Shown piece after piece: positions 401 through 63,387 of a stretch of DNA of 64,000 nt; position 1 is the first letter of the stretch; each line of letters starts with the position of its first letter. The position numbers and the translations under genes were made by a program. The stretch lies in the IMG/VR virus record IMGVR_UViG_3300030031_000041, positions 2,764 to 66,763 of that record; one strand, written 5' to 3'. This DNA is from a virus. Below the pieces are notes generated by a model. The model had not been told where the DNA came from, did no database searches, and was given only the letters and a program-made list of their open reading frames with translations.

Positions 401-802
401 ATGATCGGGACGTTAGAAGAAGTCATGAAGGATATGAAATATGGCGTACTTGATTTCACAAAGGACGGTAAATGCAGTGGTTGTGGACAATGTTGTAGCA
501 ACTACTTGCCAATATCCAGTAAAGAAATTAAAGAAATTAAACGTTACGTAAAGAAGCATCATATCACTGAACAGAAGCATAATTATCCTTCAGTTGTGGC
601 ATTTGACCTTACTTGCCCGTTCCTGGATGATTCCAAGTCAAAAGAAAAATGTCTTATATATCAAGTGAGACCTGAGATATGCAGAGATTTTGTCTGCAAC
701 AATCCGAACGGGGCAATCAAAAACAAGAAACTTATGCATAAGAAGTACGCAGCAGTAGATATGCGAGAAATATTTTTTGGAGGCAACGGGAATGAACAAT
801 AA
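401..802 (+). CDS. YkgJ/UPF0153-like Cys-cluster protein
   Basis: CSGCGQCC (CxxCxxCC) motif near N-terminus plus second Cys pair; RBS GAGGTG upstream. Confidence 0.5.
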   Translation: MIGTLEEVMKDMKYGVLDFTKDGKCSGCGQCCSNYLPISSKEIKEIKRYVKKHHITEQKHNYPSVVAFDLTCPFLDDSKSKEKCLIYQVRPEICRDFVCNNPNGAIKNKKLMHKKYAAVDMREIFFGGNGNEQ

Positions 803-1394
803 AGAAATTTTACAGAAAGCAAAGGAACTGGTTGAACTTCTGGAAAAACAGGAAGAAGCTGACAAAGTTGTGCTGTCAACACTGAAACGAGGAGATGTGT
901 TTCAGACCACTGGAAAGCGTAAATACAAGGTTCTGGAACAGTATGGAGATACAACGAAAATTATTTCGCTTGATCTGGTGAAAGAAAAGGTAGAGTTTGG
1001 TGATACCTTAGATTACAAAACATCAAAGGTAAAGAAACTGTGTGACACTGAAATCCTGAAAGACTTCGAAGAAGAATTCGGGGCAGGAAATATCGAGACA
1101 CACACAGCAGATATTATCACTGCGGATGGACAGAAATTGTGGACTGTTGATTGTAAAATTCGACCGATTACGTTTGATGAAGCACGAGAATACACAGATA
1201 TTACACCGAACAATGATCTGAACGACTGGTATTGGACGTTGTCGCCATGGTCGACAGAAGAGCGCGGTTGGAGTAGAAACTTAGCCGTTGTTTCCCCTTC
1301 GGGCTGTATCGGCGGCCGCCGTTGCGTCGGGGGTGGTGTTCGCCCAGTTTGTATCTTAAAATCTAATATCTTTGTATCTAAGGTGGAGGAATGA
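792..1394 (+). CDS. DGR variable (target) protein 1, C-terminal CLec-like variable region
   Basis: VR1 at C-terminus; W-rich motif DWYWTLSPWST before VR, ends ...VVSPSG..GVRPV; RBS GGAGG 8 nt before ATG 792. Confidence 0.75.
   Translation: MNNKEILQKAKELVELLEKQEEADKVVLSTLKRGDVFQTTGKRKYKVLEQYGDTTKIISLDLVKEKVEFGDTLDYKTSKVKKLCDTEILKDFEEEFGAGNIETHTADIITADGQKLWTVDCKIRPITFDEAREYTDITPNNDLNDWYWTLSPWSTEERGWSRNLAVVSPSGCIGGRRCVGGGVRPVCILKSNIFVSKVEE
1286..1345 (+). repeat. DGR variable repeat VR1 (plus IMH-like GTTTGTATCTT to ~1357)
   Basis: aligns to TR 2393-2457; 14 substitutions all at TR adenines plus one AAC codon deletion. Confidence 0.8.
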
Positions 1395-1996
1395 TTGTGA
1401 AGAAAAATCTGAAATATTTTGAGGATGAATTATCCAGATTAAGTAAAGAGTTCACAGAATTCAAGAAAAAGCACATCGGAAAGCCGGAAATCGGAAAAGC
1501 TATTAAGCTTGCTGGCATGGAATGGCTGATTCTGGATAATACAGAAAAAGGATATTTTGCCATTTTGAATGGATTTGATGGAAAAGAAAGAACATTTGAT
1601 TCAGATTCAAATAACTGGATTTCAAGTAAACTGAGAAATGAGTTAAACACTCGTTTTCTTAAAAAAATTACGGACGAGCTTGGAGAAGATGCAGTTATTG
1701 AGCTTGATCGAGATTTGCTTTCTCTGGACGGTCAGACAGAATACGGACATTGTAAAGATAGGATTTCACTTTTGACTGTGGATGAGTACCGGAAATATCG
1801 TAAATTGCTGCCGAACATGTCGAAATGGTGGTGGTTGATTACGCCATGGAGTACACCAGTAAATGATTACAGTACAACAATTACCGTTGTTTCCCCTTCG
1901 GGCTATATCTTCTTCATCCATTGCTACAACGTTCTTGGTGTTCGCCCGGTTTGTATCTTTTCTTCTTCAATCTTTGAAACAGGAAATGATGATTGA
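1391..1996 (+). CDS. DGR variable (target) protein 2, paralog of target 1
   Basis: VR2 at C-terminus; KWWWLITPWST motif; start overlaps stop of target 1. Confidence 0.75.
   Translation: MIVKKNLKYFEDELSRLSKEFTEFKKKHIGKPEIGKAIKLAGMEWLILDNTEKGYFAILNGFDGKERTFDSDSNNWISSKLRNELNTRFLKKITDELGEDAVIELDRDLLSLDGQTEYGHCKDRISLLTVDEYRKYRKLLPNMSKWWWLITPWSTPVNDYSTTITVVSPSGYIFFIHCYNVLGVRPVCIFSSSIFETGNDD
1883..1947 (+). repeat. DGR variable repeat VR2 (plus IMH-like GTTTGTATCTT to ~1959)
   Basis: 65-nt alignment to TR with 10 mismatches, all at 10 of the 18 TR adenines, no non-A differences. Confidence 0.85.
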
Positions 1997-2367
1997 TGGC
2001 GAATGAAGATTTAAAGGTAATAACAAAGGCCAAGCAACTTGCAAAGCATACATTAATAGTTACGAGTAATGCCAGACGATACCCGAAAAAATACAGGTTT
2101 TCACTTGTAGATAAAATGCAAAATAAAGCATTGGAAATTTATGAGTTACTATTTGAAGCCAACCGAACTGATCTGAAAGATTATAAAAGAGAACGATTAG
2201 AACTTCAAACAAAAGCCATTACTTATTGTGATGAGTTGATGTACTTTATAGAACTTTCATATGAATTAGGAATTATCAATTCCGGTGGAATGGAAGCATG
2301 GTCGCAAATGGTAAAAGATATAAAGTACATGACTATTTCATGGAGAACAAAAGACAGAAAAAGATAA
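1993..2367 (+). CDS. avd: accessory variability determinant (Avd)-like protein
   Basis: 124 aa basic helical ORF located between targets and TR/RT, the canonical Avd position. Confidence 0.6.
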   Translation: MMANEDLKVITKAKQLAKHTLIVTSNARRYPKKYRFSLVDKMQNKALEIYELLFEANRTDLKDYKRERLELQTKAITYCDELMYFIELSYELGIINSGGMEAWSQMVKDIKYMTISWRTKDRKR

Positions 2368-2392
2368 TTTTCACAGGTTATGCACTGCGAAT

Positions 2393-2457
2393 ACCGTTGT
2401 TTCCCCTTCGGGCTATATCAACAACAACCATTGCAACAACGAAAATGGTGTTCGCCC
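2393..2457 (+). repeat. DGR template repeat (TR), intergenic, AAC-rich
   Basis: intergenic copy of VRs with A at every variable position (AACAACAAC..AACAAC GAAAAT); 3-prime flank differs from VR flank (IMH* vs IMH). Confidence 0.85.
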
Positions 2458-2562
2458 AACATGGATCACATGCAGACAGAGTAAGCGTAAAGCTGAAATC
2501 AGAAAAGATACAAGCAAATGCATAACCTTTCCGCAATGGACAAACATAAAGGAACAAAATAA

Positions 2563-3582
2563 ATGGATAAAGAAATTGTTGCAAATTTTGAGAATTTATA
2601 TCGTTCTTACAAAAAGGTTAAGAGCGGTAAAAAATTTAATTCAGGTACTGCAAGATTTTCTAATTTGTCTCTTGAAGGCATTCATCTCTTGAAGGAACAA
2701 TTAGAAAGTCAAACGTATACCATAAATCCGTATAATAAATTTCAAATTCATGAGCCAAAAGAGCGAACGATAGAATCATGTGCATTTAAGGACAAAGTAG
2801 TGCAGAGATGCTTTTCTGATTACATTTTGACACCAAAACTTGAAAATATCCTGATTAAATGGAACACTGCCGGGCAGCAAGGAAAAGGGCAACACATGGC
2901 AATGGACGGGTTAAAAAATCAAATGTTGGATTTCTATAAAAGAAATGGAATGAATAGTTGGATTGTAAAATGTGATATTCACAAATACTTTTATTGCATA
3001 GACCATGAAATCATGAAAGATGTTTTGGATTATTACTTTGATGATGATTTTACAGTCTGGTTAAACCATTTGTTTATTGACAGTACAGGTAATCCCGGGC
3101 TTCCATTAGGAAATCAGGTAAATCAGAAGTACGCATTGTTGCTTTTACATTCACTGGATCAGATGATAACGATTGAATTTGGAAATCCATATTACGGACG
3201 ATACAACGATGATTTTTATGTGATTTGTAAAACGAAAGAAGATGCCAGAGAAATTCTTGAGGCAATCCGAAAGATGGTTGAAAGCCTTGGACTGGAACTA
3301 AACCCTAAATCACAAATTGTACCATTTCGCATGGGCTTGTGTTATCTGGGCTTTCATCATTACGTGACTGATGAAGGAAAATATATCAGAAAATTGCGTG
3401 GTGATAAGAAACGAAAAACACAGAGAAAAATCCGAAGATGGGTACGGGCAGTAAATGACAGGAAGATGTTGATAGAAAAATTTCATGAAAAATACGGAGC
3501 ATGCAAGAATCATATGCTTCATGGAAATTGCACCAAACTATGCCATAGTATGGATTTGGATATTGAAAGGAGAATGAAGTGA
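2563..3582 (+). CDS. DGR reverse transcriptase
   Basis: RT motifs: LPLGNQVNQ (DGR-type [I/L]GxxxSQ-like motif 4), YNDDF catalytic box (YxDD), 339 aa. Confidence 0.85.
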   Translation: MDKEIVANFENLYRSYKKVKSGKKFNSGTARFSNLSLEGIHLLKEQLESQTYTINPYNKFQIHEPKERTIESCAFKDKVVQRCFSDYILTPKLENILIKWNTAGQQGKGQHMAMDGLKNQMLDFYKRNGMNSWIVKCDIHKYFYCIDHEIMKDVLDYYFDDDFTVWLNHLFIDSTGNPGLPLGNQVNQKYALLLLHSLDQMITIEFGNPYYGRYNDDFYVICKTKEDAREILEAIRKMVESLGLELNPKSQIVPFRMGLCYLGFHHYVTDEGKYIRKLRGDKKRKTQRKIRRWVRAVNDRKMLIEKFHEKYGACKNHMLHGNCTKLCHSMDLDIERRMK

Positions 3583-4163: not shown

Positions 4164-4925
4164 TTGTTCATGCGAGTAATTTCAACAGGTAGTACCAAAG
4201 GAAATTGTTACGCTTTGCAGTCAAGTGCAGACGAGATTGTTCTTCTTGACTGCGGATGCAACTACAAGAAAATCCTCAGAGGGATTGACTACCAGATAAG
4301 CAATGTTTCTGGCGTACTTCTCTCCCATGAACACGGAGATCACACTGGCAATCACAACAAAACTGTTCGTGAAATCATGAACGCTGGAATCACGGTCTAT
4401 ACCGGAGCAGAAACAATCAAAAATTTAGGCATAACGGACGGAACTATAAAAGCTGTTGCTAAAAAGAAATACTTCAAAATCGACTCGTTCAGCGCAGTTC
4501 CGTTCAGCCTGCCACATACATCTGCAAATAAAGAGCCGTGCCCGAACTTCGGGTATCTAGTGGAACATGAGGAAATGGGAAAGCTTCTTTACCTGACAGA
4601 CTTTGAGCATTGCCGGTACAAATTCAAATCAATGGAACTTAATCATTTGGTTATTGGTTGTAATTACTGCGAGGAGCTGATAGACAGAAACAACTCGAAG
4701 TGGGAGCACCAGATCACTGGGCATTGCTCTTTATCAACTTGCAAGCAATTCGTTAAGCAGAATCGCACAGAATCGCTTCGGACAGTAACACTTGTACATT
4801 TAAGTGGGGATTCATCTGATGCCCGTAAAATACAGCGAGAAATACAAGAAGTTACAGGAAACAATGTTCTGGTTCAGATTGGACGGGCTGGACTGGAAGT
4901 TGACTTGAATTTATGCCCGTTCTGA
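4164..4925 (+). CDS. MBL-fold metallo-hydrolase
   Basis: LSHEHGDHTGN (HxHxDH) motif. Confidence 0.65.
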   Translation: MFMRVISTGSTKGNCYALQSSADEIVLLDCGCNYKKILRGIDYQISNVSGVLLSHEHGDHTGNHNKTVREIMNAGITVYTGAETIKNLGITDGTIKAVAKKKYFKIDSFSAVPFSLPHTSANKEPCPNFGYLVEHEEMGKLLYLTDFEHCRYKFKSMELNHLVIGCNYCEELIDRNNSKWEHQITGHCSLSTCKQFVKQNRTESLRTVTLVHLSGDSSDARKIQREIQEVTGNNVLVQIGRAGLEVDLNLCPF

Positions 4926-8320: not shown

Positions 8321-8668
8321 ATGGAGAAATTAAAACCTTGTCCGTTTTGTGGAGGAAAAGCAATAACCGAATGTTGGGCTAGTGGAGGCATTATGTACAT
8401 GGTTAAGTGCGGTAATCCAGATTGCGTTGTACCAGCGGAAGGTTATCCTTCTGGAAGAAATTTGACAGCTGTAAGAGAACAGTGGAATAGGAGGGTAAAA
8501 AAAATGAGCTACTGTGGCGGAACCTGTAAGTATCTGAATACAAGAAAACACAAATGCGAATTGACAGGAGAAAAACTCACATACATGACAAACAGTTGTG
8601 GAATCGAGTATTCAGTGCATGAGCACAGAGGATTCTGTGAGAAAGACAAGGAGGACGCAAAATGCTAA
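8321..8668 (+). CDS. Lar-family restriction-alleviation-like Zn-ribbon protein
   Basis: N-terminal KLKPCPFCGG motif and WNRR motif characteristic of Lar family. Confidence 0.5.
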   Translation: MEKLKPCPFCGGKAITECWASGGIMYMVKCGNPDCVVPAEGYPSGRNLTAVREQWNRRVKKMSYCGGTCKYLNTRKHKCELTGEKLTYMTNSCGIEYSVHEHRGFCEKDKEDAKC

Positions 8669-14331: not shown

Positions 14332-14569
14332 ACCGTGGAGAAAATTGACGCCACAAGAAATTCAGAATTTGACTAATCGTCAATGCACAGACTGCAAGTT
14401 CTATCCGAAATCAAACGGCACATCAGGGAAAATGCAACCGTGCGATTATATTTTTATGGTCGGCCATAGTCGAGGATGTGACCCAAGAGATTGCGTAAAA
14501 GAAGGCAAATTTGAATATGCAGCAACAAAGAAAAGGAGAAAAGCATGGAGGGCAAAGACGAAAAGTTAG
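14309..14569 (+). CDS. hypothetical protein
   Basis: ORF track. Confidence 0.4.
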   Translation: MKMENKRKPWRKLTPQEIQNLTNRQCTDCKFYPKSNGTSGKMQPCDYIFMVGHSRGCDPRDCVKEGKFEYAATKKRRKAWRAKTKS

Positions 14570-14690
14570 ATATCACGCCAGAACTGGTGCTTATATGCAG
14601 GAAAGTAATACGACAATACGCAAAGCAAATTGGTAGGCATGATTGCCATAAATGCGTCATATATGCAGAATGCGAGCATGACTTTGTCAG

Positions 14691-14939
14691 ATGCCCGGAA
14701 TTATGGAAGGACATCAGCCTATGAGAAGAATCAGCGAAATGTACAAGCGTTCGGGCGGTACGAACTACGAACATCAATGCTTTGAATGTAGGATGTTTAA
14801 AAACGTTAAAAGATGCAAATGCTTAAATTACGAACTGGATGCTGACTGGAATCCGAATTGGACAGCCTGCAAATTTTTTACAAAAGATGAAATAGAAGAA
14901 ATACAAGGACAGATGAATATTTTTGATTTTGTGAAATGA
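14691..14939 (+). CDS. hypothetical Cys-containing protein
   Basis: ORF track. Confidence 0.4.
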   Translation: MPGIMEGHQPMRRISEMYKRSGGTNYEHQCFECRMFKNVKRCKCLNYELDADWNPNWTACKFFTKDEIEEIQGQMNIFDFVK

Positions 14940-15079
14940 GAGGTGAGCATATGGCAATTGTTACGATTGATGGAAAAGAAATTGACATCGAACAAATTGA
15001 ACTGCCAGAAGAAATTATTAAAATCATAATTGAATGCTTAGGTTGACCGCAAAAATATTGTAGTGTAAAATGTGTCGTA

Positions 15080-15097
15080 ACATGATATGTGCGGCAC
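15080..15097 (+). repeat. inverted repeat arm L (ACATGATATGTGCGGCAC) upstream of recombinase
   Basis: 17/18 match to reverse complement of 16533..16550. Confidence 0.6.
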
Positions 15098-15122
15098 ATT
15101 TCTACACAAAGGAGGAATAGTC

Positions 15123-16487
15123 ATGGAATGTGTTGCGTATTTGCGTGTATCAACAGAAAAACAGGCCGAAGAGGGAAATGGATTAGACAGTCAGAAAAGA
15201 GATATTGAAAATTATTGTAGAAAAAATCAATTGATTATATCTGATTGGTACGAGGATGACGGCTTCACAGGTTCGAATATGAATCGTCCAGCATTGCAAC
15301 GCTTAATTAATGATTGCTCAAAGAAAAAATTAAAATGTGTTGTAGCGTTTAAACTAGATCGATTATCAAGAAGCATGGTCGATGGAATATACTTAATTGA
15401 ACGTGTATTCATACCTAATGGGGTGGATTTTAGATGCGTGCATGATAGTGTAAGCTACGACAGCCCAATGGAGCAAGCATACACTCAGATGATGGCAGTG
15501 TTTGCGCAACTTGACAAAAATACTATGTTGCTTAGAATGCGTGGCGGTATGCTGGAGCGAGTGAAACAGGGATATTGGATGGGAGGTGGCAACACTCCTT
15601 ATTGCTATAGATATAGCAAAGAAGACGGAATCTTAGTTCCCATACCAGAACGCAAAGAAATGGCTTTGCGAGCTATGAATTTGTATATATCCGGTTATTC
15701 TGATGTTCGAATACATAAATTGATAGGATTTAAAAGCGAGTTTGTTACACGACAGGTTCTTACCAGTCCTGTAAATATTGGCATGATTCCGTATAAAGGG
15801 AAACTATATAAGGGAAGACATGAACCAATTTTCGATATTAAAGTATTTGAATTAGCCCAGGAATTAAGAAAAACTCGTAAGCAAAGTAAAAGCTTCTGTG
15901 TTAATCACGAGAATCAGCTCTTGACGGGGCTGTGCTATTGCGGAGTGTGCGGGTGCAAGATGAGATATCAGAAATGGACTCATGGAAAGCATAAAATTTA
16001 TTGCTATTCAAGGGATAACGGCATGTCGTACTTACCAAATTATAATCCGAATTGCAACAATTCGCTTGAGTGGGCAGAAGATATTGAAAAGCAGGTTGAA
16101 GATGAGATTTTAAAGATTTCCCTCAATTTATCATCGCATAAGCCAAAAGAAAGAGAAAGCTGTCTGGACATTTTGAGTAAACAACTCCAAAAAGAAAAAA
16201 CGAAGCTAAAACGTCTATATACTCTTTATGCTGAGGGAAATGATACGGTTTTGGAGATGATAAAAGAAACGGAATCCGGTATAGATGAATTAAAACTAAA
16301 AATACAGAACGAGATGAAGAGCCCGGATAACTCACAGAAGAAAGAATTTGTATACGATAATATAAAAAAGCTTGCCGATGTGTGGGAACACATTGACAAG
16401 CAAAACAAAAACCGTATATTAAAAACTATAATATCAAAAATAATTATAGTCAATGGAAATATTGAAATACAGTTGAAGAAATTTTAG
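15123..16487 (+). CDS. large serine recombinase (integrase-type)
   Basis: VAYLRVSTEKQ..GLDSQ catalytic N-terminus, recombinase and Zn-ribbon/coiled-coil C-terminal region; RBS GGAGG. Confidence 0.8.
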   Translation: MECVAYLRVSTEKQAEEGNGLDSQKRDIENYCRKNQLIISDWYEDDGFTGSNMNRPALQRLINDCSKKKLKCVVAFKLDRLSRSMVDGIYLIERVFIPNGVDFRCVHDSVSYDSPMEQAYTQMMAVFAQLDKNTMLLRMRGGMLERVKQGYWMGGGNTPYCYRYSKEDGILVPIPERKEMALRAMNLYISGYSDVRIHKLIGFKSEFVTRQVLTSPVNIGMIPYKGKLYKGRHEPIFDIKVFELAQELRKTRKQSKSFCVNHENQLLTGLCYCGVCGCKMRYQKWTHGKHKIYCYSRDNGMSYLPNYNPNCNNSLEWAEDIEKQVEDEILKISLNLSSHKPKERESCLDILSKQLQKEKTKLKRLYTLYAEGNDTVLEMIKETESGIDELKLKIQNEMKSPDNSQKKEFVYDNIKKLADVWEHIDKQNKNRILKTIISKIIIVNGNIEIQLKKF

Positions 16488-16532
16488 CACAAACTATATG
16501 CCATAGGAACTGCATTATGTAAGTGCTAATAA

Positions 16533-16550
16533 GTGCCGCACGTATCATGT
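16533..16550 (-). repeat. inverted repeat arm R (GTGCCGCACGTATCATGT)
   Basis: reverse complement matches 15080..15097 at 17/18. Confidence 0.6.
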
Positions 16551-16573
16551 CAATAAATAACAGGAGGGTAACG

Positions 16574-17251
16574 ATGATCTCACAGGGAATCAGCCATACT
16601 GCATACGATACCATGAAAGAATATATGCTCACAGGAGCCGAACTGGACGGCAAATACCAAATTCCAATGATGGACAGGTATGTGGACGAAATACCACAAG
16701 ACACAGTGGATTTTAAAGACAGTTTCAGCCGAAAGATAAAGAATCATCGAGAATTAAGCATCAACTTTTATATCCATGACTGCGAATTTGAAAAGCTATG
16801 GAATAATCCAGATAGATACCTGGAACACTTGAAATGTTTCAAGAGCGTGATCGCACCAGACTTTTCAATGGCAGTCGGTGAAAATGGTATGCCATTTGCT
16901 ATGAATATCTGGAACAAATACAGAAATCATGCCATGGCTCATTATCTCAGTATGAACGAGATAAAGGTGATTCCTAACGTGAGCATACCTCCAGAGTATT
17001 GCTATGACTGGGCTTTTGATGGTGTGCCAAAAAGAAGCACCGTAGCATGTTGCACCAATGGAAGAATTAAATCCAGAGCATCCAGAGAAGAATTCTGTAT
17101 AGGCTTTAAAGAAATGGAAAGGCGCATAGAGCCGCTCCGAGTTATCGTTGTAGGGAAAATACCACCTGAACTCAATACGGACGTGGAAATCATCAATTTC
17201 AAGACCAGAAGTCAGAAGATCAAGGATAAGGAGGGAAAATATGGGGTATAG
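16574..17251 (+). CDS. hypothetical protein
   Basis: ATG 16574 after AGGAGGG; ORF track 16523..17251. Confidence 0.5.
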   Translation: MISQGISHTAYDTMKEYMLTGAELDGKYQIPMMDRYVDEIPQDTVDFKDSFSRKIKNHRELSINFYIHDCEFEKLWNNPDRYLEHLKCFKSVIAPDFSMAVGENGMPFAMNIWNKYRNHAMAHYLSMNEIKVIPNVSIPPEYCYDWAFDGVPKRSTVACCTNGRIKSRASREEFCIGFKEMERRIEPLRVIVVGKIPPELNTDVEIINFKTRSQKIKDKEGKYGV

Positions 17252-18157
17252 TACTGGAAACTCATTGAGAAAGAAATCGAAGACCAAAAAACAGGAAGAA
17301 CGAGAACAGAGGATGAAAAGTGGAACCGCAATAAAGAAGAAAAGAAGCACTGGTAAAGTAGATCATCTAAATAAATTGAAATAATTTTACATTTTCCACA
17401 GTCCCAAAATAGATGCTATAAAAATATTTGTACAAAATTACAAATAAATAAAAATTATAAAACGACCCGTATCCATGGAAAAATGATTTTTTTCGTTCAA
17501 AATCCATGCTTCGGGTCTTTTTGAATGTCTGTGAAAATTAGCGCTCGTGAGGCTTCATAGTAAAGCGATGATACATCAAGGAATATACCCGCGGCAAAGC
17601 ATGCCGCCATCCGATGCGCACGATCATACTAGAAACATTGTAATTAATTGCATAATTGCGCCTAAAATCAATTCGAACGGCATAAGCCTATACTTTATCG
17701 GGTGACGATATAAAACGGCTTAAAAACCAAAAATACAGCGTTACAGCACGAACAGGAACATAAACACACCTATAAATATATCTAGCAAGCCCGTAAACGT
17801 GTATAAAATCAATTTTATATTTACAGTCGATAAAATTCACATGTAAGCATATAAACAGCCGTAAAATGCCAAATAAGTGCTTGCAAGGATAACGAAACCG
17901 GCAACAGCTGCATAAACTGTACAGAATCCAAGTCGGCAATTATCCACATTGACATATATTATCATAATACGCCTGTTATATTTTGCCGTCAATCCTTTTA
18001 GTTGATTGTGTAAAACTGCTCAGAAACGATTTTATAGCCGTATGCGGTATATTTTACCGAAAGCCAGTTATAAACCGTTAAAAGTCGAATAAAAGGCACT
18101 ACAGCAGAAATCCCGGCACAGGTCACGAACCAACGCCGCCCGGAGAGGATGCAGGAC

Positions 18158-18186
18158 ACGAGAAAAATAGCAGCTTTTTACTGCTC
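18158..18186 (-). terminator. intrinsic terminator of minus-strand cassette
   Basis: AGCAG/CTGCT stem followed on minus strand by U-rich tract. Confidence 0.45.
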
Positions 18187-18564
18187 TAAATAATATATAT
18201 TTGTTATCGTTGGCAAGTCCCGGAAGAATTCCAGGAAGCCGGAACTGTCAAGAATATTATACTGGCGGTCAGATGTTGGAATCATGCAGCCGTTTTTGAT
18301 CTCCATACAGGAAAGTTGTAAATATCCCGGTTTTTTCGTGGATTTATGCAGCGCGTACCGCATAACAGACACCGCACCAGACCGGCAGCGCACCGGCGGC
18401 AAGTCGTACCAGATTAGCGGGACAGCACCGAAAGAAACCGTATCAAAGACCTGTTTAGCGTCTCTTTTTGCGGCTGCTCCGATTTTATCAACGGTGGAAA
18501 AATCCCCGCTTAAAATTGCGTCAATGGTCTGTTCTGACGTTGGTTTTACAATTCTGTCTATCAT
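18178..18564 (-). CDS. hypothetical protein
   Basis: ORF track; GC-richer than surroundings. Confidence 0.5.
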   Translation of the reverse strand: MIDRIVKPTSEQTIDAILSGDFSTVDKIGAAAKRDAKQVFDTVSFGAVPLIWYDLPPVRCRSGAVSVMRYALHKSTKKPGYLQLSCMEIKNGCMIPTSDRQYNILDSSGFLEFFRDLPTITNIYYLEQ

Positions 18565-18638
18565 ATATAAGCCTCCATTCTGATTGAAAAACAGGCGGGA
18601 AAGCCCCGCCCGAAATTGTTTTATTTGATTTAAAAAGC

Positions 18639-19007
18639 CTAAATCCTTTTTATAAACTCGGTTTCCGTATAGTTTTCTCCGGTTACCTCATTCACAAATG
18701 CCAAGATTCCGGACTTTGTGAAATCAAAGCGGGTAAAGTCAAAGCCCCTTTGTGCAAGCCTGTATTCATAAGAACGTCCGCAGCCTTCAGCGTCGTAATA
18801 CGTTCCGTCGATATGCAAGGCGTTAGGCTGTACCACTGGACAGCCTTTTTTATTTGCGTCGCGCCTCTGGTAGCTTCCAAAATCCGCAATAACGTGCAGG
18901 CCGTCCAATGTATCAAATTCTGCGCGAACTCTGCAATTTGGAACGTCTGAGCCGTTTCTATAGCCTGTTCCTGTACATCCGTATTCTACTAATGTTATTT
19001 TTTTCAT
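18639..19007 (-). CDS. hypothetical protein
   Basis: ORF track. Confidence 0.5.
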   Translation of the reverse strand: MKKITLVEYGCTGTGYRNGSDVPNCRVRAEFDTLDGLHVIADFGSYQRRDANKKGCPVVQPNALHIDGTYYDAEGCGRSYEYRLAQRGFDFTRFDFTKSGILAFVNEVTGENYTETEFIKRI

Positions 19008-19077
19008 GTTTTTAATCCTCCTGATTTTATTTTAAAAGGCCGCCGGGGAAATGCTCCCCGGTACGCTTGCCGGTCTG

Positions 19078-19677
19078 TTAATCGCAGATATATGACCAAG
19101 AATTCACTTTTGTTGTTCCGTATCTTTTTAAATATGCATCAATCCGTTTTTCGAATGCTTTTCTAACTTCTTTAAAGCCGTCAATAATTTTCTGGATATC
19201 GTCCGCACCCAGCTTTTTTATATCCTTGCAATTAATCCAACGCATCGGGGTAAATTCTGGATTATATCCGGTTCTCACCACCGTGAAAGCCTTTAATTTG
19301 CTGTCGTCTGGCTGTCCCATATAATGAGTATATGTATAACACTCGTATTCATAACCGCTCAAACATTTTTCAAGATCCTCTATATCAGAATCAATCTTTT
19401 TTAGATTTTGTTCTTTAAAATATTGCTCGCTTTTTCGGGCTAATGCTGCCATGTCTTCGGCGTCTTTCATTTCTTCATTGGTGCAAGTACCATAAGAGCC
19501 AGCACCAAAACAAAAGTCCTTTTTTATAGATGGTTTTTCAATATCTGCGATATCTCCATTTGAAAATTGAACCACATAAGCGCAATTTTTCTTTGCAAAA
19601 TTTTGCATGTACTCATCTTCCCATACCTCTGTTTTAATAATACTCATGTACATTTCTTTTAATTCTTTCTGCGTCAT
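19078..19677 (-). CDS. hypothetical protein
   Basis: internal Met MTQKELK chosen as start; upstream extension Arg/Ser-rich and likely spurious. Confidence 0.45.
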   Translation of the reverse strand: MTQKELKEMYMSIIKTEVWEDEYMQNFAKKNCAYVVQFSNGDIADIEKPSIKKDFCFGAGSYGTCTNEEMKDAEDMAALARKSEQYFKEQNLKKIDSDIEDLEKCLSGYEYECYTYTHYMGQPDDSKLKAFTVVRTGYNPEFTPMRWINCKDIKKLGADDIQKIIDGFKEVRKAFEKRIDAYLKRYGTTKVNSWSYICD

Positions 19678-19756
19678 AGCTGTTATACCTCTTTTCTTAT
19701 TTTTTTGAAATCCGGCGGTTGCGTTGGGGCTACGGCTTGACCGCCGCCGGAAAAAT

Positions 19757-20095
19757 TTATTTGATTTTTGTATCTGTCCAGATATCAAGGATACTACGGA
19801 AACAATTTAATTCATCAACGGTAAAGCCGCCGTCATTAATATGGAATATTGCATAATCTCCATATTTTTCGTTTATGTCCTGAACGTAATTATAAAATTT
19901 TTCGAACCGTTCCAGGCGGTCAAAATCTAAAATATACCATTTGTGACCGGCTGGAAGAGTTTTGATAAATTCCTCCGCGTTACTCGGGCAATTGAATGCA
20001 CCCGAAACGCTCACTTTGCTTTTACGGTCGTCTTGTGTGCTGCGGTCGATCATTGTGAAGACTGCCCAACTTAAATACTTTGTATATTTATTCAT
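19757..20095 (-). CDS. hypothetical protein
   Basis: start MNKYTKYL at 20095; upstream part of ORF track is Cys/Tyr-rich low-complexity overlapping operator region. Confidence 0.45.
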   Translation of the reverse strand: MNKYTKYLSWAVFTMIDRSTQDDRKSKVSVSGAFNCPSNAEEFIKTLPAGHKWYILDFDRLERFEKFYNYVQDINEKYGDYAIFHINDGGFTVDELNCFRSILDIWTDTKIK

Positions 20096-20243
20096 TGCTT
20101 TTTTCCTCCATTCTCCCGGCTTTGCGACCGGGTTGGTTGTTCTCTGTTGATGGTTATATAATACTATATATAACGCACATATACAAGACGGAATACTAAC
20201 CAAATAACGCACATATATTAAAGACAAAATTGTGCATAATGTA

Positions 20244-20290
20244 TAACGCACATAGATATATTGACAATCTAACGCACATACATTATAATA
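20244..20290 (+). promoter_or_regulatory. promoter-operator copy 1: TTGACA-17-TATAAT with TAACGCACATA sites
   Basis: exact 47-bp direct repeat with 20505..20551; consensus -35/-10 with 17-bp spacer. Confidence 0.6.
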
Positions 20291-20321
20291 GAAGAAAAAC
20301 GAAACGGGAGGCGGTCGAGTT

Positions 20322-20507
20322 ATGGCAACAGAAGCACAGCGTAAAGCAGTCAGAACATATGAAAAAAACAACTATAGACTTAATATAGTATTTCCCAAGG
20401 ACACCAAAGAACGCATTGAAAAATTAAACCTTAATAAAAGCAATAGCGCATTTATTAGAGATACCGTTCTTGCAGAGCTGGACAGACTTGAAAAAATATT
20501 AAAATAA
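20322..20507 (+). CDS. ribbon-helix-helix (CopG/Arc-like) regulator
   Basis: 61 aa, N-terminal basic beta-strand-like segment then helices; flanked by operator repeats. Confidence 0.5.
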   Translation: MATEAQRKAVRTYEKNNYRLNIVFPKDTKERIEKLNLNKSNSAFIRDTVLAELDRLEKILK

Positions 20508-20551
20508 CGCACATAGATATATTGACAATCTAACGCACATACATTATAATA
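20505..20551 (+). promoter_or_regulatory. promoter-operator copy 2
   Basis: identical to 20244..20290. Confidence 0.6.
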
Positions 20552-20602
20552 AAGATAACAAAAGAAGAACTCCCCAGACGGGGAAATATAGGAGGGTAAG
20601 AA

Positions 20603-20923
20603 ATGCAGGAAATTTACAGGAGTTTTGAAGGGAAGTTAAATGTTGATTGTCAGGACGGATATATTATCCTTGAGTTGAAAGAAAGATACCAAATTGAATG
20701 GTTGACTGTCTGGGGGAAAACGCAGAAAATACGAGTAAAAAAAGATCTGCTTCCGGTGGAAGATTTCGGAAATGCTTCGAAAATATCTGAACTTTTTACG
20801 GATATTTCGCATGGATGTTTAAAAGGATGCATGTATTATTACAAAAACTCGTGGTATAGCTATGACAAAATACTTGAGATTCAAAAGAAAAATCAAAGTA
20901 ATAACTGGCAGGCATATGTATAA
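20603..20923 (+). CDS. hypothetical protein
   Basis: ORF track, RBS GGAGGG. Confidence 0.5.
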   Translation: MQEIYRSFEGKLNVDCQDGYIILELKERYQIEWLTVWGKTQKIRVKKDLLPVEDFGNASKISELFTDISHGCLKGCMYYYKNSWYSYDKILEIQKKNQSNNWQAYV

Positions 20924-20993
20924 AATTAACAATTAAACAAGGGGAGGGAACAAGAGGATAATTACAAACAAGCCATATTTGAATACAAAATAA

Positions 20994-21025
20994 GCCCTTT
21001 GGAATTCACCAAGGGGCTTTTATCA
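20994..21025 (+). terminator. intrinsic terminator
   Basis: GCCCTTTGG/CCAAGGGGC stem then TTTTATC..TTTTTT. Confidence 0.5.
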
Positions 21026-21236
21026 TGCTTTTTTGTGGCGGCTTTTAGGACAGGTACAGAACTGCCGCCGAAGTCCTGACATAATTATTCATAGCACAAT
21101 ATCATCAAAAAGTCAACGACAAATTTTTACTTGACTTTTACGAGTCGTTCTGTTATGTTCAATACAACGAAGCCGACGGAACTCAGGAAGGGGCAGGGCT
21201 GACAAAGCGGATCGTAACTGAATACGAAAAAAATAT

Positions 21237-21280
21237 AGCCAGATCACACCGGAATAGCTGCCGGAAGGTCTGGCTTTTTG
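21237..21280 (+). terminator. intrinsic terminator (possible sRNA 3-prime end)
   Basis: AGCCAGATC..GGTCTGGC stem with inner hairpin, then TTTTT. Confidence 0.45.
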
Positions 21281-21656
21281 TGTGTTCAAAATGCCCTATT
21301 ATAATATTATATATATTAATATTATGGATTATGAATATCTATAATTATAGTTATTCCCTGTCCCTTCATAGATTCCAGAGGCTGAGTTGATTAATATAAT
21401 ATTGTATATAGTATATATAATATACATAGATATAGTATATGCTGTTATATGAGATTGACTAAAAGTTTTAAATTAATAGTTGACAGAATAACAACTTGTA
21501 TGTTAATACTGTTAATAGAGATACAGATACAGGCCGAAAGCGAGAACGAACCGCTGGAGGACTGAACCGGTTAGCTACTGGACAACGAACCAGAGTCGAC
21601 CGGCTTTTTTTATTTATGATGATTTAATAGATTAACGTTATAAAGGAGGTGATACA

Positions 21657-22701: not shown

Positions 22702-22935
22702 TTACGACTCTTCTCTAACATCATCAATATTAAATTTGACAATTACATCTGGTATGGCTTCAACCACTATTTGGCATCCGAGGAAATCCAGAATAGTAAT
22801 CAACTCATTAGCAGAAAGCGTTCCTCTGGAAAACTTATTTGCCAAAGCTTGTGGAGAAGTTCCAAGATGTTCGGCAACTTGAACATTGGTTGCTTTTTTG
22901 AGTCTCATTATCTGTTTTACTTTTTGAGAAACCAT
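22702..22935 (-). CDS. XRE-family HTH transcriptional regulator (Cro/CI-like)
   Basis: 77 aa, HTH QVAEHLGTSPQALANKFS. Confidence 0.7.
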   Translation of the reverse strand: MVSQKVKQIMRLKKATNVQVAEHLGTSPQALANKFSRGTLSANELITILDFLGCQIVVEAIPDVIVKFNIDDVREES

Positions 22936-23017
22936 AACGATACCTCCTATAATTATATAATAAACGCAAACGTTTCAAAAATCAATAATAATTCACTTGA
23001 ATGTGAACAATATACTT

Positions 23018-23046
23018 GCAATCACACACGCTAAGGTGTATAATTT
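23018..23046 (+). promoter_or_regulatory. sigma70-like promoter TTGCAA-17-TATAAT
   Basis: upstream of small serine recombinase. Confidence 0.4.
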
Positions 23047-23074
23047 ATTTATAAAGAAACAGGAGCGTGTATAT

Positions 23075-23665
23075 ATGAAGGTAGGATATGTAAGGGTTTC
23101 AACAGTTGACCAGAACGAAGCAAGACAGATTGAAGCCATGAAAGCAGATAGCGTTGAAAAAATATACGTGGACAAACAGTCAGGAAAAGATTTTAATCGT
23201 CCGCAATACCAGCAAATGATTTCGGAACTTAGAGAAGGTGACATGCTGGTTCTCCATTCTATCGATCGTCTCGGAAGAAATTATGAAGAGATTCTGGAAC
23301 AATGGAGGATTATTACAAAAGAAATCAAAGCGGACATCATGGTTCAAGATATGCCACTTCTCAATACATCCATATCAAAAAATTTGGATGGTACGTTTGT
23401 AGCAGACTTAGTTCTCCAGATTCTTTCGTATGTATCGCAAAAAGAAAGAGAAAATATCAAACGCCGTCAAGCAGAGGGCATTGCCATTGCTAAGGCTCAG
23501 GGCAAATATAAAGGACGTGCAAAGAAAGAGATTGACAAAAAACTTTTTGAAGATACTAAAGCCAGATGGCAGAATGGTGAGATTACAAAAATTCAATTTG
23601 CTGAAACCATTGGAGTTTCCAGGGGAACATTATACAGAATCTTAGGGGAGGAAAAGGATGATTGA
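23075..23665 (+). CDS. small serine recombinase (resolvase/invertase type)
   Basis: MKVGYVRVSTVDQN..., C-terminal HTH GVSRGTLYRIL; RBS AGGAG. Confidence 0.75.
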   Translation: MKVGYVRVSTVDQNEARQIEAMKADSVEKIYVDKQSGKDFNRPQYQQMISELREGDMLVLHSIDRLGRNYEEILEQWRIITKEIKADIMVQDMPLLNTSISKNLDGTFVADLVLQILSYVSQKERENIKRRQAEGIAIAKAQGKYKGRAKKEIDKKLFEDTKARWQNGEITKIQFAETIGVSRGTLYRILGEEKDD

Positions 23666-25930: not shown

Positions 25931-26002
25931 AGGGCTATCGCCAAGTGGTAAGGCACAGCACTTTGACTGCTGTATTCGCGGGTTCGAATCCCACTAGCCC
26001 AG
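25931..26002 (+). tRNA. tRNA-Gln (anticodon TTG)
   Basis: cloverleaf: acceptor AGGGCTA/TAGCCCA, anticodon loop CTTTGAC, T-loop TTCGAAT; A1:A72 mismatch, one C-A in T stem; no encoded CCA. Confidence 0.65.
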
Positions 26003-26224
26003 CTTGCTAGGTTGCGCATGTACCTGGCAAAGGTTTATTTCACATAGACCCTCCGATACCCATCTAGCTCAACGGAGCTGTCTAAAGGGGCTTCAAACGT
26101 CCCGGATGGGATTCCCGTATAGGTGACAGCAAAACCAAAAAAGGGAGCCTTTGTTGCGACTGGTGGCAAAGAATCGCAACAGTAGAAAATATGGCTTTGA
26201 GGTGCTGGTAATATTTTCTACTCA

Positions 26225-26297
26225 GGAAATTTAGTTCAGTGGTTAGAACGCCCGGCTCATAACCGGCAAGTCCTGAGTTCGAATCTCAGAATTTCCA
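26225..26297 (+). tRNA. tRNA with CAT anticodon (Met or Ile2)
   Basis: acceptor GGAAATT/AATTTCC, D stem GTTC/GAAC, loop CTCATAA, T arm CTGAG-TTCGAAT-CTCAG. Confidence 0.65.
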
Positions 26298-26855
26298 TTT
26301 CTTCCATATGCTGCCCATCCGTTTTATGGGCAGAAAAAACTTTCGGATGAGCGTATGTGAATCAGAATGAGCAAAGATATGTAACGGCATAGGCTTGTGC
26401 TTGATCTGATTTCCCGTCCGATGAATGTTTCTTAGTTTCAATAAGCCATCACAGGTGCACATTGATGACAAGGGAGTTTTCAAGAAACATAAAGTCAAAA
26501 GGCATAATAATATCCGAAACAACTCTGTGTGGCTGACACAGCATAAAACAGTCTAGTGGAAAGCATAACACGATAAACATATTGCTAACCCGGGAATCCG
26601 GGTTATGGGAAAGCGGCAACGATTGGTGGTGTTGCGGCGGTCTGTAAAACCGTTCCCTTGTGGTAAACATTATAGGTTCAATTCCTATCTTTCCCATTGT
26701 TTGGAGACTGAAAGTTTGGTGGTAGGAAAAGCACAGGGCAGTGCGCAGGAATGTATAACCGAGTTCCGAATGCGTACTGTTTATCGGTGATATAGTGACT
26801 TCCTCTAGTAGTCAATAAGTGAACGTGCTGAAATGGTTCTTCCAAACATGTACAT
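26298..26855 (+). ncRNA. candidate large structured ncRNA between tRNAs (ROOL/GOLLD-like location)
   Basis: 558 nt, no credible ORF, many local hairpins; sits between tRNAs. Confidence 0.3.
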
Positions 26856-26927
26856 CGCAGGATAGAGAAGCGGAATCTCGCAAGGTTCATATCCTTGAGA
26901 ACGGCGGTTCAAATCCGTCTCCTGCAA
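26856..26927 (+). tRNA. tRNA with CAT anticodon, C1:A72 mismatch (initiator-like)
   Basis: acceptor CGCAGGA/TCCTGCA, D stem GAGA/TCTC, anticodon stem CAAGG/CCTTG loop TTCATAT, T arm GGCGG-TTCAAAT-CCGTC. Confidence 0.6.
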
Positions 26928-27613
26928 TTTCAAACATGATTAACTCAGTGCAGATAGATTTTCAGTCTAGCTGAGATACAGGGTTATGTAAGATGGAGTA
27001 GTTCGGGATACTGGACTATCAACCATCTTTTTAGCAGAAGTGATTCTGTTAGAGGAGGAAGAAACTTCCAACACACCTTGTAGTGTATCATCATAAAGAG
27101 ACCAAAAGCAGAATCCTTGTGGTCGGCGTACAATAGACGCTTGCTGTGCAAGAATAATCCGTTGATGTGAGTGGTGTGAGAGACCACAGACTAAACGGAA
27201 ATCTCGTTAAGCTGATTTGCCTTGAACCTGAGAAATTAGGGTATAACACAAGAGATTCGTTAAAGTAGCGGTATGGCAATTCATAAAAAAATTTCATGCT
27301 ATAAAAAACATTTTCTGAAAGAACCGTGAAATTTGTGGGTGACACTCCCATGTGTGCTTTGACCGCGGTAAGAAGCTCAGGGTCGCTCCCGAAAGCTCAG
27401 ACTTATCGTCACAGTGGCTGAACATGGTTGCAAGTATGGTGAATAAGGAGAAATCCTAATCGTGGTTGAATATGGTGCATTGCTGTAATGGTATCAGAGT
27501 AGGTTGCTAACCTATCCAACAGAAATGTTGTACACGTTCGAATCGTGTATGCACCGCTCCATCTACCATGAGTAGATAGGAAATCCGACTTTAGCATAGC
27601 TATTGTTGGTTTT
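26928..27613 (+). ncRNA. candidate large structured ncRNA between tRNAs
   Basis: 686 nt noncoding, structured, flanked by tRNAs. Confidence 0.3.
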
Positions 27614-27687
27614 CGGAATGTATCTCAGTTGGGAGAGCGGAGGACGCATAGTCCTTGACGTCGCAAGTTCGAATCTTGCCTTTCCGA
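27614..27687 (+). tRNA. tRNA-like gene with CAT in anticodon loop (atypical G33; possibly degenerate)
   Basis: acceptor CGGAATG/CTTTCCG (one mismatch), T arm GCAAG-TTCGAAT-CTTGC, loop CGCATAG. Confidence 0.4.
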
Positions 27688-54039: not shown

Positions 54040-54172
54040 TTTTGGTAAAACCAGTAGGCTAGGGTAGCTCCCGAAAAGTGTAATTCCATGATACACCTGC
54101 CTACTGTTTTTATAAATCATGGATCTGTGGCTACAAGGCAGTCACGCATTAACGACATGGAGGTTATCTATT

Positions 54173-55333
54173 ATGAGCGAACAAATCAAAGAATTATCCC
54201 AAAATGAATTAGAAAGAAAAGTAGATTACATATTTTCACATAGATTTAATCACACTCTGCATGCTTATATCGATATTGCAGGTGATTTAACAGCAGGTGT
54301 TTTATTATCTCAAATTATGTACTGGTTTGATAAAGATTCAAAAAATGAGTGCGTCAGAACAAAAATCAAAAAGAAAGGTTATTTTTGGATTGCTAGGCGT
54401 AGAGATGAATGGGCAAACGAAATAAGAGTTGCACCTAAGCAGTATGATTCTGCGATGAAAAAATTAAAAGCTAGAAATTTGGTAGTTGTTGAAAAATTTA
54501 AAATTAATGGTGCTCCAACAACGCATATCAGACCTAATGATGAAGTAATAAATGTTGCTATTAAAGAATGGAAAGAACAAATTGCTCTTGAAATTATCAA
54601 AGACAACGAAGCGGAACAAAGTGACGTGAATTCCTCAAATCAGAATTTACCAGAAGAGGAAAATCACGAAAAAGTAGTGCCAAATGATGATAAACACTGG
54701 TTTTCCCCAAAAGAGGAATTTCCAAATTCCCAAAACAAGGAAAACCATGGAATTTCCCAAAATGGGAAAATGGAACTTCCCCAAAATGGAAACTCTTTAA
54801 TTAATAAGAACTATAATAAAGATTTAGATGAGGTTTATAAAAAGAGGGTTAAAGATTCTGATACTACTAAAGTAGTACCAGTAGATTCTCCATGTCCGGG
54901 TAAGCCGGAAACAAGGAGCATCCAGTCTCCACTCGGAATGGGAATAAGCGAAATCCTTTTGAGGAAAGGAATAAACCAATATTGGAATGATGTAGGATGC
55001 GAAGAGTATGAAGAATTGAAAACAAATGTCACTAATGTCATATTATATTTTTTGGAAAAATACAAAATTAAACTAGGCAAAAGCCATGTTCATTTAAAAG
55101 AAGAATATATAAAAACCGTAGTAGAAGGAATTGTTACAGTACCAGACGAGATGATTGAGTTGATAGATGCTTATGGCTTTGAGTATATTTATAAATCATG
55201 CATTGACATGTATTTTGATACAAAATTCAGAGAAGATACCAATTATCGTATTTTTCATTTCATAAAAGGTGATATTAGGAAAAATATTGCAATGAAACTT
55301 TCAGACCAAATAGAGTTGATAAGCGATAAATAA
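54173..55333 (+). CDS. replication-initiator-like protein (inserted module)
   Basis: RBS GGAGG before ATG 54173; N-terminal wHTH-like region, Asn/Lys-rich middle. Confidence 0.45.
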   Translation: MSEQIKELSQNELERKVDYIFSHRFNHTLHAYIDIAGDLTAGVLLSQIMYWFDKDSKNECVRTKIKKKGYFWIARRRDEWANEIRVAPKQYDSAMKKLKARNLVVVEKFKINGAPTTHIRPNDEVINVAIKEWKEQIALEIIKDNEAEQSDVNSSNQNLPEEENHEKVVPNDDKHWFSPKEEFPNSQNKENHGISQNGKMELPQNGNSLINKNYNKDLDEVYKKRVKDSDTTKVVPVDSPCPGKPETRSIQSPLGMGISEILLRKGINQYWNDVGCEEYEELKTNVTNVILYFLEKYKIKLGKSHVHLKEEYIKTVVEGIVTVPDEMIELIDAYGFEYIYKSCIDMYFDTKFREDTNYRIFHFIKGDIRKNIAMKLSDQIELISDK

Positions 55334-62630: not shown

Positions 62631-62682
62631 AAAAAAGAGATGATCTGTTTCTATTCCTTGACAGATCATCTCTTTTATTTTA
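62631..62682. terminator. bidirectional intrinsic terminator between convergent genes
   Basis: 13-bp stem AGAGATGATCTGT/ACAGATCATCTCT with A-run and T-run flanks. Confidence 0.6.
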
Positions 62683-63387
62683 TTTAATAATATATTCCCA
62701 ATATTGATTTTTAATATCCGCATATCCGTTCTTACGAATCAGTACTTTATCACCAGAAAACATCGTAAAATCAGAATCCAGCTTTTGCACATAATCCATG
62801 TTTACAACAAATGACTTATGGCAACGCAAAAACCGTTTATCAAGGTAAGGCTCAACCGACTTTAAAGTTGCATACATACTGTGCATAATCCCGTTCGTGC
62901 AATGAACAAAAACTTGCTTATCCCGTGCTTCGAGGTACTCGATTTTGTTCAATGGAATCCTTATAATGCAATCTCTGTGTCTGATTGTGAGCATCTTGTG
63001 TTTCATATCACTCAAGGTATTGTCAATCATAGAAAACATTCTTCCGTGTTCATTTCCCTTGATGATATAATGCGTAAATTCAACATCCAACGCATCAAAA
63101 ACAAAATCCTTGTGAGCTGTCCAGAAAGCAATTTTGCCCTTATATCCACACTCTCGGAGTTCTTTGGCAATATCCACGCCATTTTCGTTTTTAAGTATTA
63201 CATCCAAGACAATCATATCAAACCATTTTCCGTCCTTAACATCATCTATCAAGGGTTCCCCACTGAAATAACCGTCTATCGTATAATTCCGGTCACCGTT
63301 TTGCTTCAAAAACGGTTCAATCCGATGCTTAAAATACTCAACCTGTAGTTCACAATCGTCACAAATAGCAATTTTCATAGTAATCAC
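62680..63387 (-). CDS. LytTR-family two-component response regulator
   Basis: N-terminal receiver (IAICDDCE, D residues), C-terminal LytTR DNA-binding domain. Confidence 0.7.
   Translation of the reverse strand: MITMKIAICDDCELQVEYFKHRIEPFLKQNGDRNYTIDGYFSGEPLIDDVKDGKWFDMIVLDVILKNENGVDIAKELRECGYKGKIAFWTAHKDFVFDALDVEFTHYIIKGNEHGRMFSMIDNTLSDMKHKMLTIRHRDCIIRIPLNKIEYLEARDKQVFVHCTNGIMHSMYATLKSVEPYLDKRFLRCHKSFVVNMDYVQKLDSDFTMFSGDKVLIRKNGYADIKNQYWEYIIK

Follow-up and report, generated by a model that had tools for sequence, protein, structure and literature searches.

What are the four consecutive minus-strand genes at 18178–20095 of this gut-phage DNA, and do they act as one system? The stretch analysed, referred to here as the window, comprises 64,000 nucleotides (positions 2,764 to 66,763) of the IMG/VR virus record IMGVR_UViG_3300030031_000041, and all coordinates refer to it. 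An earlier note, made from the sequence without database searches, had described the genes as a four-gene accessory cassette between integrase and switch. We find that the four genes (A, B, C and D, with A nearest the immunity region) represent a single arrangement, among at least 52, of an array into and out of which genes are swapped, in a common temperate gut phage of Blautia type and ~75–80 kb. We place high confidence in this structural description of the array.

The four open reading frames (ORFs) fill exactly 18178–20095, as the earlier note had it, and GGAGG-type ribosome-binding sites precede their ATG starts (Table 1). The exact protein sequences of A, B, C and D recur on many gut-metagenome phage contigs of ~75–81 kb in public assemblies. 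One contig of 75,042 bp is 100% identical to the window over 14500–21500, and NCBI records named Blautia obeum hold a relative of A (90% identity) with an adjacent ribbon–helix–helix (RHH) gene and a gene for 106 amino acids. All four genes are under purifying selection (pairwise dN/dS 0.06–0.17), with only two to four alleles for A, C and D. Because of these exact copies and the low dN/dS values, A–D are taken as real, constrained coding genes. The proteins are soluble, with isoelectric points of 5.3–7.7 and no hydrophobic segments. The block had been called GC-richer than its flanks; this is true of C and D but not of A and B. The mean GC content of the window is 0.390, with A and B below it and D at about the 95th percentile of 380-nucleotide windows. 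This contrast fits separate origins.

Arrays in related loci were delimited by their conserved ends, which gave 92 loci and 66 unique sequences. These 66 arrays contain ~59 ORF families in 52 arrangements, with 3–12 genes each (median 6) over 1.2–3.9 kb. The order A-B-C-D is the commonest single arrangement, at five of the 66 in what is a biased sample. Homologues of B were identified in viral contigs, which were then searched with A, C and D using tblastn; a single phage lineage holds the combinations A-B-D, A-B-C, B-D and B-C. Near distant homologues of B in other phages (28–56% identity) neither A nor D was ever found, and C was represented only once, by a C-like ORF of 30% identity close to one B homologue (locus L077). 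In one relative (loci L004 and L013) gene A is split by an internal stop codon and is a pseudogene. Components of a multi-component system co-occur across evolutionary distance, which A–D do not. The four genes assort independently, one of them has decayed in a relative and distant B homologues lack A and D; the cassette as a unit is therefore not supported. The phage of L004 and L013 has another integrase and another switch, and what it has in common with the window is confined to 18113–20107, at 95% identity. Because nothing beyond this interval is shared, the array also moves as a block.

The ends of the array are conserved. Of 127 related loci, 97 have the 5′ boundary motif, 120 the 3′ element and 92 both. 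Relatives that have another immunity type are homologous only as far as 20163–20164; the array and the immunity region meet there in a mosaic breakpoint (~20164). The 3′ element is kept regardless of whether the last gene is D or a gene of another family (F24), and regardless of the sequence beyond. Its GC-rich part of ~55 nucleotides past the terminal terminator (18107–18168) is conserved in every lineage, also where the neighbours on both sides are different. As a structured RNA the 3′ element found no support (RNA stability z −0.01, with no stable structure predicted). The locus thus combines a fixed position and conserved bounds with many unrelated cargo families among close relatives, and counts as a phage diversity hotspot as the term is used with iLund4u (Egorov, Hauryliuk & Atkinson; bioRxiv 10.1101/2024.10.15.618418).

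Between these ends the intergenic gaps are ~70–80 nucleotides long and consist of a GC-rich hairpin, an A/T-rich stretch and a ribosome-binding site, in that order. The block had been credited with its own terminator; a terminator-like hairpin does follow D, but it is one of several, as each intergenic gap holds a conserved GC-rich hairpin. These linkers are position-specific and conserved nearly base for base; L2, L3 and L5 are listed in Table 1, and L1 and L4 occur additionally in relatives. The exact 39-mer of L2 occurs in at least 80 viral contigs, with one copy in each. Linker L4, which is not in the window, is present in 23 of the 66 arrays (for example in the gaps from C to g12 and from g4 to g10) and contains a tRNA-like T-arm and 3′ acceptor half (CCGGGTTCGATTCCCGGCAACGCC), which suggests a tRNA-derived or att-like remnant within the array. 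Breakpoints can fall even inside first and last codons: family f70 and C have identical first 17 residues, and D and F24 both end in LEQ-stop. No promoter-like site was found on the minus strand inside 18178–20095.

A promoter for the block had been placed in the operator region, and one was indeed located there: the leftward promoter PL, with an operator copy inside its spacer. The six TAACGCACATA copies lie across PL and across the two rightward consensus promoters. When four immunity types were compared, the −10 element of PL and the downstream sequence were conserved, and the −35 element and spacer were immunity-specific; in all four types the type's own repeat copy overlaps the spacer or the −10 element. 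Because of this placement, PL would be repressed by the immunity-specific protein. Here the sole such protein is the 61-residue RHH-like protein, in place of which other immunity types carry two different HTH_26 proteins or a 65-residue protein with a different repeat. The RHH-like protein is presumed to bind the TAACGCACATA repeats and probably controls the array promoter. Its gene is bracketed by a perfect 48 bp duplication (20243–20290 and 20504–20551). Each block contains two operator copies and a consensus TTGACA-17-TATAAT promoter (20261–20289 and 20522–20550), so that the early genes further downstream have the same promoter/operator unit as the RHH gene.

Table 1. Coordinates of the array, its control region and the adjoining candidate noncoding RNA (ncRNA) in the window.
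Feature	Position	Strand	Sequence or size	Description	Occurrence
Gene A	19757–20095	−	112 amino acids	GC 0.375; ATG start	
Gene B	19078–19677	−	199 amino acids	GC 0.352; ATG start	
Gene C	18639–19007	−	122 amino acids	Four Cys; GC 0.444; ATG start	
Gene D	18178–18564	−	128 amino acids	GC 0.455; ATG start	Usually last in array
5′ boundary motif	20139–20157	−	ATAACCATCAACAGAGAAC	Start of array transcript/5′ untranslated region	
Linker L2	19712–19750	−	CCGGCGGCGGTCAAGCCGTAGCCCCAACGCAACCGCCGG	39-nucleotide hairpin between slots A and B	57/66 arrays; 6 upstream and 8 downstream families
Linker L3	19038–19070	−	GCAAGCGTACCGGGGAGCATTTCCCCGGCGGCC then T-run	Terminator-like hairpin between slots B and C	56/66 arrays; 7 upstream and 9 downstream families
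Linker L5	18586–18611	−	GGGCGGGGCTTTCCCGCCTG then TTTTTC	Canonical intrinsic terminator ~20 nucleotides upstream of D start	38/66 arrays; 4 upstream families, downstream mostly D
3′ boundary element	18107–18200	−	AGCAGTAAAAAGCTGCT then T-run (18169–18185)	Last codons LEQ-stop, terminal terminator and ~55 nucleotides GC-rich	
Array promoter PL	20158–20186	−	TTGTAT-17-TATTAT	−35 at 20186–20181, 17-nucleotide spacer, −10 at 20163–20158; operator copy O1 in spacer	
Operator cluster	20171–20181, 20205–20215, 20244–20254, 20270–20280	+	TAACGCACATA	Direct copies	
Further operator copies	20505–20515, 20531–20541		TAACGCACATA	Total of six copies, one orientation	
RHH-like protein gene	20322–20507	+	61 amino acids	phrog_31631; YlcI/YnfO match below cutoff	Sole immunity-specific protein
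Candidate ncRNA	17440–17992	−	~500 nucleotides	Promoter TTGACG-17-TATTAT at 17992–17964; bidirectional terminator ~17462–17515	Terminator 95–100% conserved

The proteins themselves give few leads. They had been said to lack any recognisable motif, and searches with A–D against Pfam, PHROGs, PADLOC and NCBIfam gave no significant match, nor did single-sequence and profile searches against PDB sequences. No similarity to metabolic or regulatory families was seen in the family searches. None of the four matches a Pfam anti-CRISPR (Acr) family, and a known Acr in the operon is thus not found by this route. An exhaustive search yielded 47 representatives of A; B has 58 clusters, and the family of C is narrow (23 clusters, 55–96% identity). 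The most widespread is D, with 954 clusters at 90% identity and tblastn confirmation in 240 viral-contig stretches; among the 120 matches listed of these 954, no Pfam domain or informative name was present. AlphaFold models were made for A and B and are confident (pLDDT 90.4 and 96.6, respectively). Foldseek comparison of the B model with BFVD returned a sole match, to one uncharacterized gut-phage protein, and to judge from the models A and B have no known fold. Remote homology for A–D and structure prediction for A and B, among the checks that the earlier note had named, gave no known relatives. Among INPHARED phages no match was obtained by megablast of the locus or by tblastn of B and D; PLSDB plasmids gave none for B by tblastn, and Rfam none on the locus. 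The literature search on this Blautia phage turned up nothing relevant.

The reading that we prefer as a whole, which we rate at somewhat better than even, is that of an operator-controlled array of slots and linkers with early counter-defence or establishment cargo. In this reading PL, at the edge of the immunity region, drives a string of independent units, each a single gene that has its own ribosome-binding site. The cargo would be shuffled where linkers and ends are conserved, by homologous recombination among related phages or prophages. PL, together with the rightward promoters, would be repressed by the small DNA-binding protein specific to the immunity type (in this phage the RHH-like protein). 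From such joint repression a burst of array transcription early after infection or induction is predicted, as for the phage lambda PL (early-left) operon. The hairpins may grade or gate read-through. Each cargo protein would, on its own, inhibit or modulate host functions, most likely in counter-defence or establishment.

The earlier note had remarked that this position in temperate phages typically carries superinfection-exclusion, defence or anti-defence genes. The general part of the remark stands, as the locus is a hypervariable accessory hotspot with conserved ends; the three functions fare differently. Counter-defence or host-takeover cargo, expressed early, is favoured with moderate confidence and on circumstantial support. 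Besides the operators of PL in four immunity types, this support comes from the surroundings of B homologues and from the cargo pool. In another phage a 55%-identical B homologue lies ~1.7 kb from an AcrIC5-family gene, with HTH_26 and HicB-like genes also near. The commonest families among 149 neighbour clusters of distant B homologues are PcfJ, ArdC (ArdcN with MPTase-PolyVal) and DUF7659, and DarT, Zeta toxin, FtsK and DUF4942 are other neighbours. Among the cargo families are a DUF4121 protein, a PHROG match whose annotation reads 'released from the phage upon host infection' and an LPD29 protein in which a weak J domain was also seen. When ~30 alternative cargo families were compared one by one with Pfam, these LPD29/J-domain and DUF4121 proteins and a helicase-associated (HA) domain (family F13) were all that was recognized.

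Several points weigh against the preferred reading. Retrieval of the loci relied on B, C and D as queries, which biases the cargo frequencies and leaves out arrays devoid of all three; some of the ~59 ORF families are probably spurious small ORFs. The counter-defence context comes from few loci (two to three of the 149 neighbour clusters and the one AcrIC5 neighbour), and no anti-defence activity, demonstrated or inferred from homology, was found for any cargo protein. The canonical terminator L5 stands right before D, and simple co-transcription from PL does not explain expression of this gene. No CI-like repressor was found, and the array could be on in lysogens. The RHH-like protein itself may be the lysogenic repressor, with the array silent in lysogens, or a Cro- or Aca-like shut-off factor (Aca, anti-CRISPR associated).

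The alternative with the strongest case, though an unlikely one, is that the cargo is expressed from the prophage for defence or superinfection exclusion, like lambda rexAB and sieB or the genes in the integrase–repressor interval of mycobacteriophages. The array adjoins the immunity region, is directed towards the prophage end and is transcribed divergently to the lytic genes; as a hotspot it behaves like the P2/P4 defence hotspots, and with no CI-like repressor identified it may be expressed in lysogens. However, an immunity-specific operator copy inside the promoter in four immunity types predicts repression together with the lytic promoters, which counts against expression in uninduced lysogens only if the RHH-like protein is the lysogenic repressor. 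Defence also receives no support from PADLOC, which matched none of A–D and none of 50 representatives of the wider cargo below E 0.001 (the single match had E 0.0075), whereas in the P2 old/tin hotspot ~21% of cargo groups match DefenseFinder (bioRxiv 10.1101/2024.10.15.618418). A–D are small and lack enzymatic motifs. They also lack membrane segments, which argues against classical Gram-positive exclusion proteins, and exclusion of the membrane type is unlikely for proteins with no hydrophobic segment. A bolder version of the preferred reading is distinctly doubtful: the hairpin linkers would be dedicated signals of an integrase-less, integron-like system of cassette exchange and expression, doubling as regulated terminators or processing sites, through which a widespread gut phage lineage recombines dozens of single-gene counter-defence effectors, A and B among them as founders of new anti-defence folds.

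It is improbable that the genes are ordinary morons for lysogenic conversion or modulation of host physiology, acting on sporulation, stress or metabolism. Variable, dispensable single genes with following terminators fit the moron concept, and integration at a sigma-factor-like gene together with a LytTR response regulator suggests an interest in host regulation. Such a role is opposed by the absence of internal promoters and of similarity to metabolic or regulatory families, and by the distant B homologues, which sit in early regions of mobile elements and not among host-metabolism genes. Highly improbable is a lysogeny-maintenance operon in which A, at the position of CI, is a novel repressor or regulator and B–D are passengers. 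Gene A was rejected as the immunity repressor: it does not co-vary with immunity type, and because it is 80–90% identical across the four types it is not the operator-specific protein. Least credible of all is a single co-functional system of four components. Its parts are adjacent, co-oriented and were jointly moved into an unrelated phage, and A-B-C-D tops the arrangements in the biased sample described above. Independent assortment in 52 arrangements and the lack of the other three genes beside distant B homologues (apart from the weak C-like match) largely refute it; the GC contrast and the terminator-like hairpin after every gene also speak against it.

Three statements about the surroundings of the array also needed revision. 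The array does not lie directly between integrase and switch, as attP (~16495–16506), a DUF4417 gene and an ncRNA region intervene. The attP crossover (~8510–8517 in prophage contig L005) lies just past the stop of the serine integrase gene (16487) and before the DUF4417 gene; because attP lies between integrase and array, the integrase is at one end of the prophage and the array close to the opposite one. In L005 the phage ends at att and is followed by a host sigma-70 region-4 gene and then by PPK2 and ABC transporter genes. Some relatives have an insertion of ~100 bp at 16554–16574. Nor is the array the only multi-gene block on the minus strand, as genes for a LytTR response regulator (62680–63387) and a DUF4352 protein (63623–63976), both on that strand, form a second accessory block. 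This pair lies downstream of an endolysin gene (60965–62440; GH25, NlpC/P60 and peptidoglycan-binding domain). The array is also accompanied by a single minus-strand helix–turn–helix (HTH) gene at 22702–22935. This gene (77 amino acids, DUF6471) and a resolvase/invertase gene (22997–23665) form a module at 22702–23665 that is missing from three near-identical relatives (L001, L003 and L007).

The region 17300–18170 had been taken for a noncoding AT-rich spacer. Coding is indeed excluded by frame-breaking indels, but the region is not notably AT-rich (GC 0.373), and within it lie a conserved promoter and a bidirectional terminator. The interval 17440–17992 is probably an ncRNA gene; its minimum free energy z-score is −2.4, it has no Rfam match and relatives carry indels of 1, 2 and 83 nucleotides. 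A hydrophobic ORF at 17837–17965 was rejected as a type I toxin, as the same indels break its frame. Other members of the lineage have a gene for 259 amino acids with an HA domain just past the 3′ end of the array instead.

Elsewhere in the window, a diversity-generating retroelement (DGR) at 777–3582 comprises an RVT_1 reverse transcriptase gene (2563–3582), a template repeat (2392–2457) and variable repeats (1882–1947 and 1283–1348) at the 3′ ends of two DUF6273 genes (1391–1996 and 777–1394, respectively), with differences at template adenines. Gene D was considered as a DGR target for its 954 clusters and was rejected: no repeat from the cassette occurs elsewhere in the window, which covers all but ~11 kb of the phage, the variability of D is scattered and the DGR of the window targets other genes. 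A ROOL RNA (26920–27477, 384 bits) lies inside a cluster of five tRNA genes (25931–27687), and an int-alpA RNA motif (54052–54122) lies just upstream of an ORF for 404 amino acids (54119–55333). The metallo-β-lactamase-fold protein encoded at 4164–4925 is a possible anti-defence candidate outside the array; it matches Apyc1, an anti-Pycsar nuclease, weakly and below threshold (18 bits, cutoff 50).

If the cargo is counter-defence, the ~59 ORF families (some of them probably spurious) amount to a discovery list with at least two confident predicted folds absent from the PDB. The source lineage is abundant in the human gut, and phage defence in its Clostridia hosts has been little studied. Exact linkers such as the L2 39-mer provide sequence handles with which array variants can be pulled from metagenomes. 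The array is also a concrete, testable model of accessory-gene shuffling at single-gene resolution in temperate phages.

Among known systems, the hypervariability hotspots described with iLund4u have conserved flanks and cargo of which ~90% is unannotated, and expression timing has been proposed as a means of separating defence from anti-defence cargo (bioRxiv 10.1101/2024.10.15.618418). Like these hotspots and those of P2/P4, the present locus has a fixed position, conserved flanks and dozens of mostly unannotated alternatives in islands of 3–12 genes. It differs in being one operator-controlled unit with hairpin-partitioned slots and in having no recognisable defence content; the enrichment in recognisable defence proteins that marks a defence hotspot was not found. 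Morons in the Juhala/Hendrix sense share with A–D a following terminator and presence or absence among relatives, but the array is no classical moron set, as a promoter for each gene is not seen here. Integron arrays likewise consist of ordered promoterless single-gene cassettes with one upstream promoter and a hairpin after each. The cores of L2, L3 and L5, in contrast, are position-specific and conserved in sequence and lack the attC R′/R′′ GTTRRRY core, and in place of IntI (a tyrosine recombinase), attI and attC sites after the cassettes, only the serine integrase (15087–16487) and the resolvase/invertase were found. Acr/Aca loci resemble the array in that small, unannotated genes of fast turnover adjoin the gene of a DNA-binding protein that is likewise small, regulates itself and has a very strong promoter, and an AcrIC5-family gene lies near one B homologue. 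However, no known Acr or other anti-defence family is present in the window, and the RHH gene is divergent with direct-repeat operators, whereas an Aca is co-transcribed downstream and has inverted-repeat operators.

Phages of the T4 type reportedly have hyperplastic regions with mobile regulatory cassettes termed promoter-early stem-loop (PeSL) elements. There too novel small ORFs are parted by conserved stem-loop motifs that are thought to mediate recombinational shuffling; unlike PeSL elements, linkers L2, L3 and L5 are promoterless and unlike each other, and the phage is temperate. In function the array appears most like the early-left operon of lambda. This operon contains ral, gam, kil, sieB and the ea genes, and its terminators tL1–tL3 are overcome by N; its promoter PL drives small non-essential genes for host takeover and anti-restriction. 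Both systems have a leftward operator-controlled promoter that faces from the immunity region towards att/int, and terminators inside the operon. The present array differs in that no N/nut-like antiterminator was identified, in its candidate repressor (the 61-residue RHH-like protein with direct-repeat operators), in the sequence and fold of its cargo, which are unrelated, and in the arrangement of attP and integrase. What appears to be new here is the combination of ordered slots, base-conserved position-specific linkers and dozens of unannotated single-gene families in an abundant gut phage.

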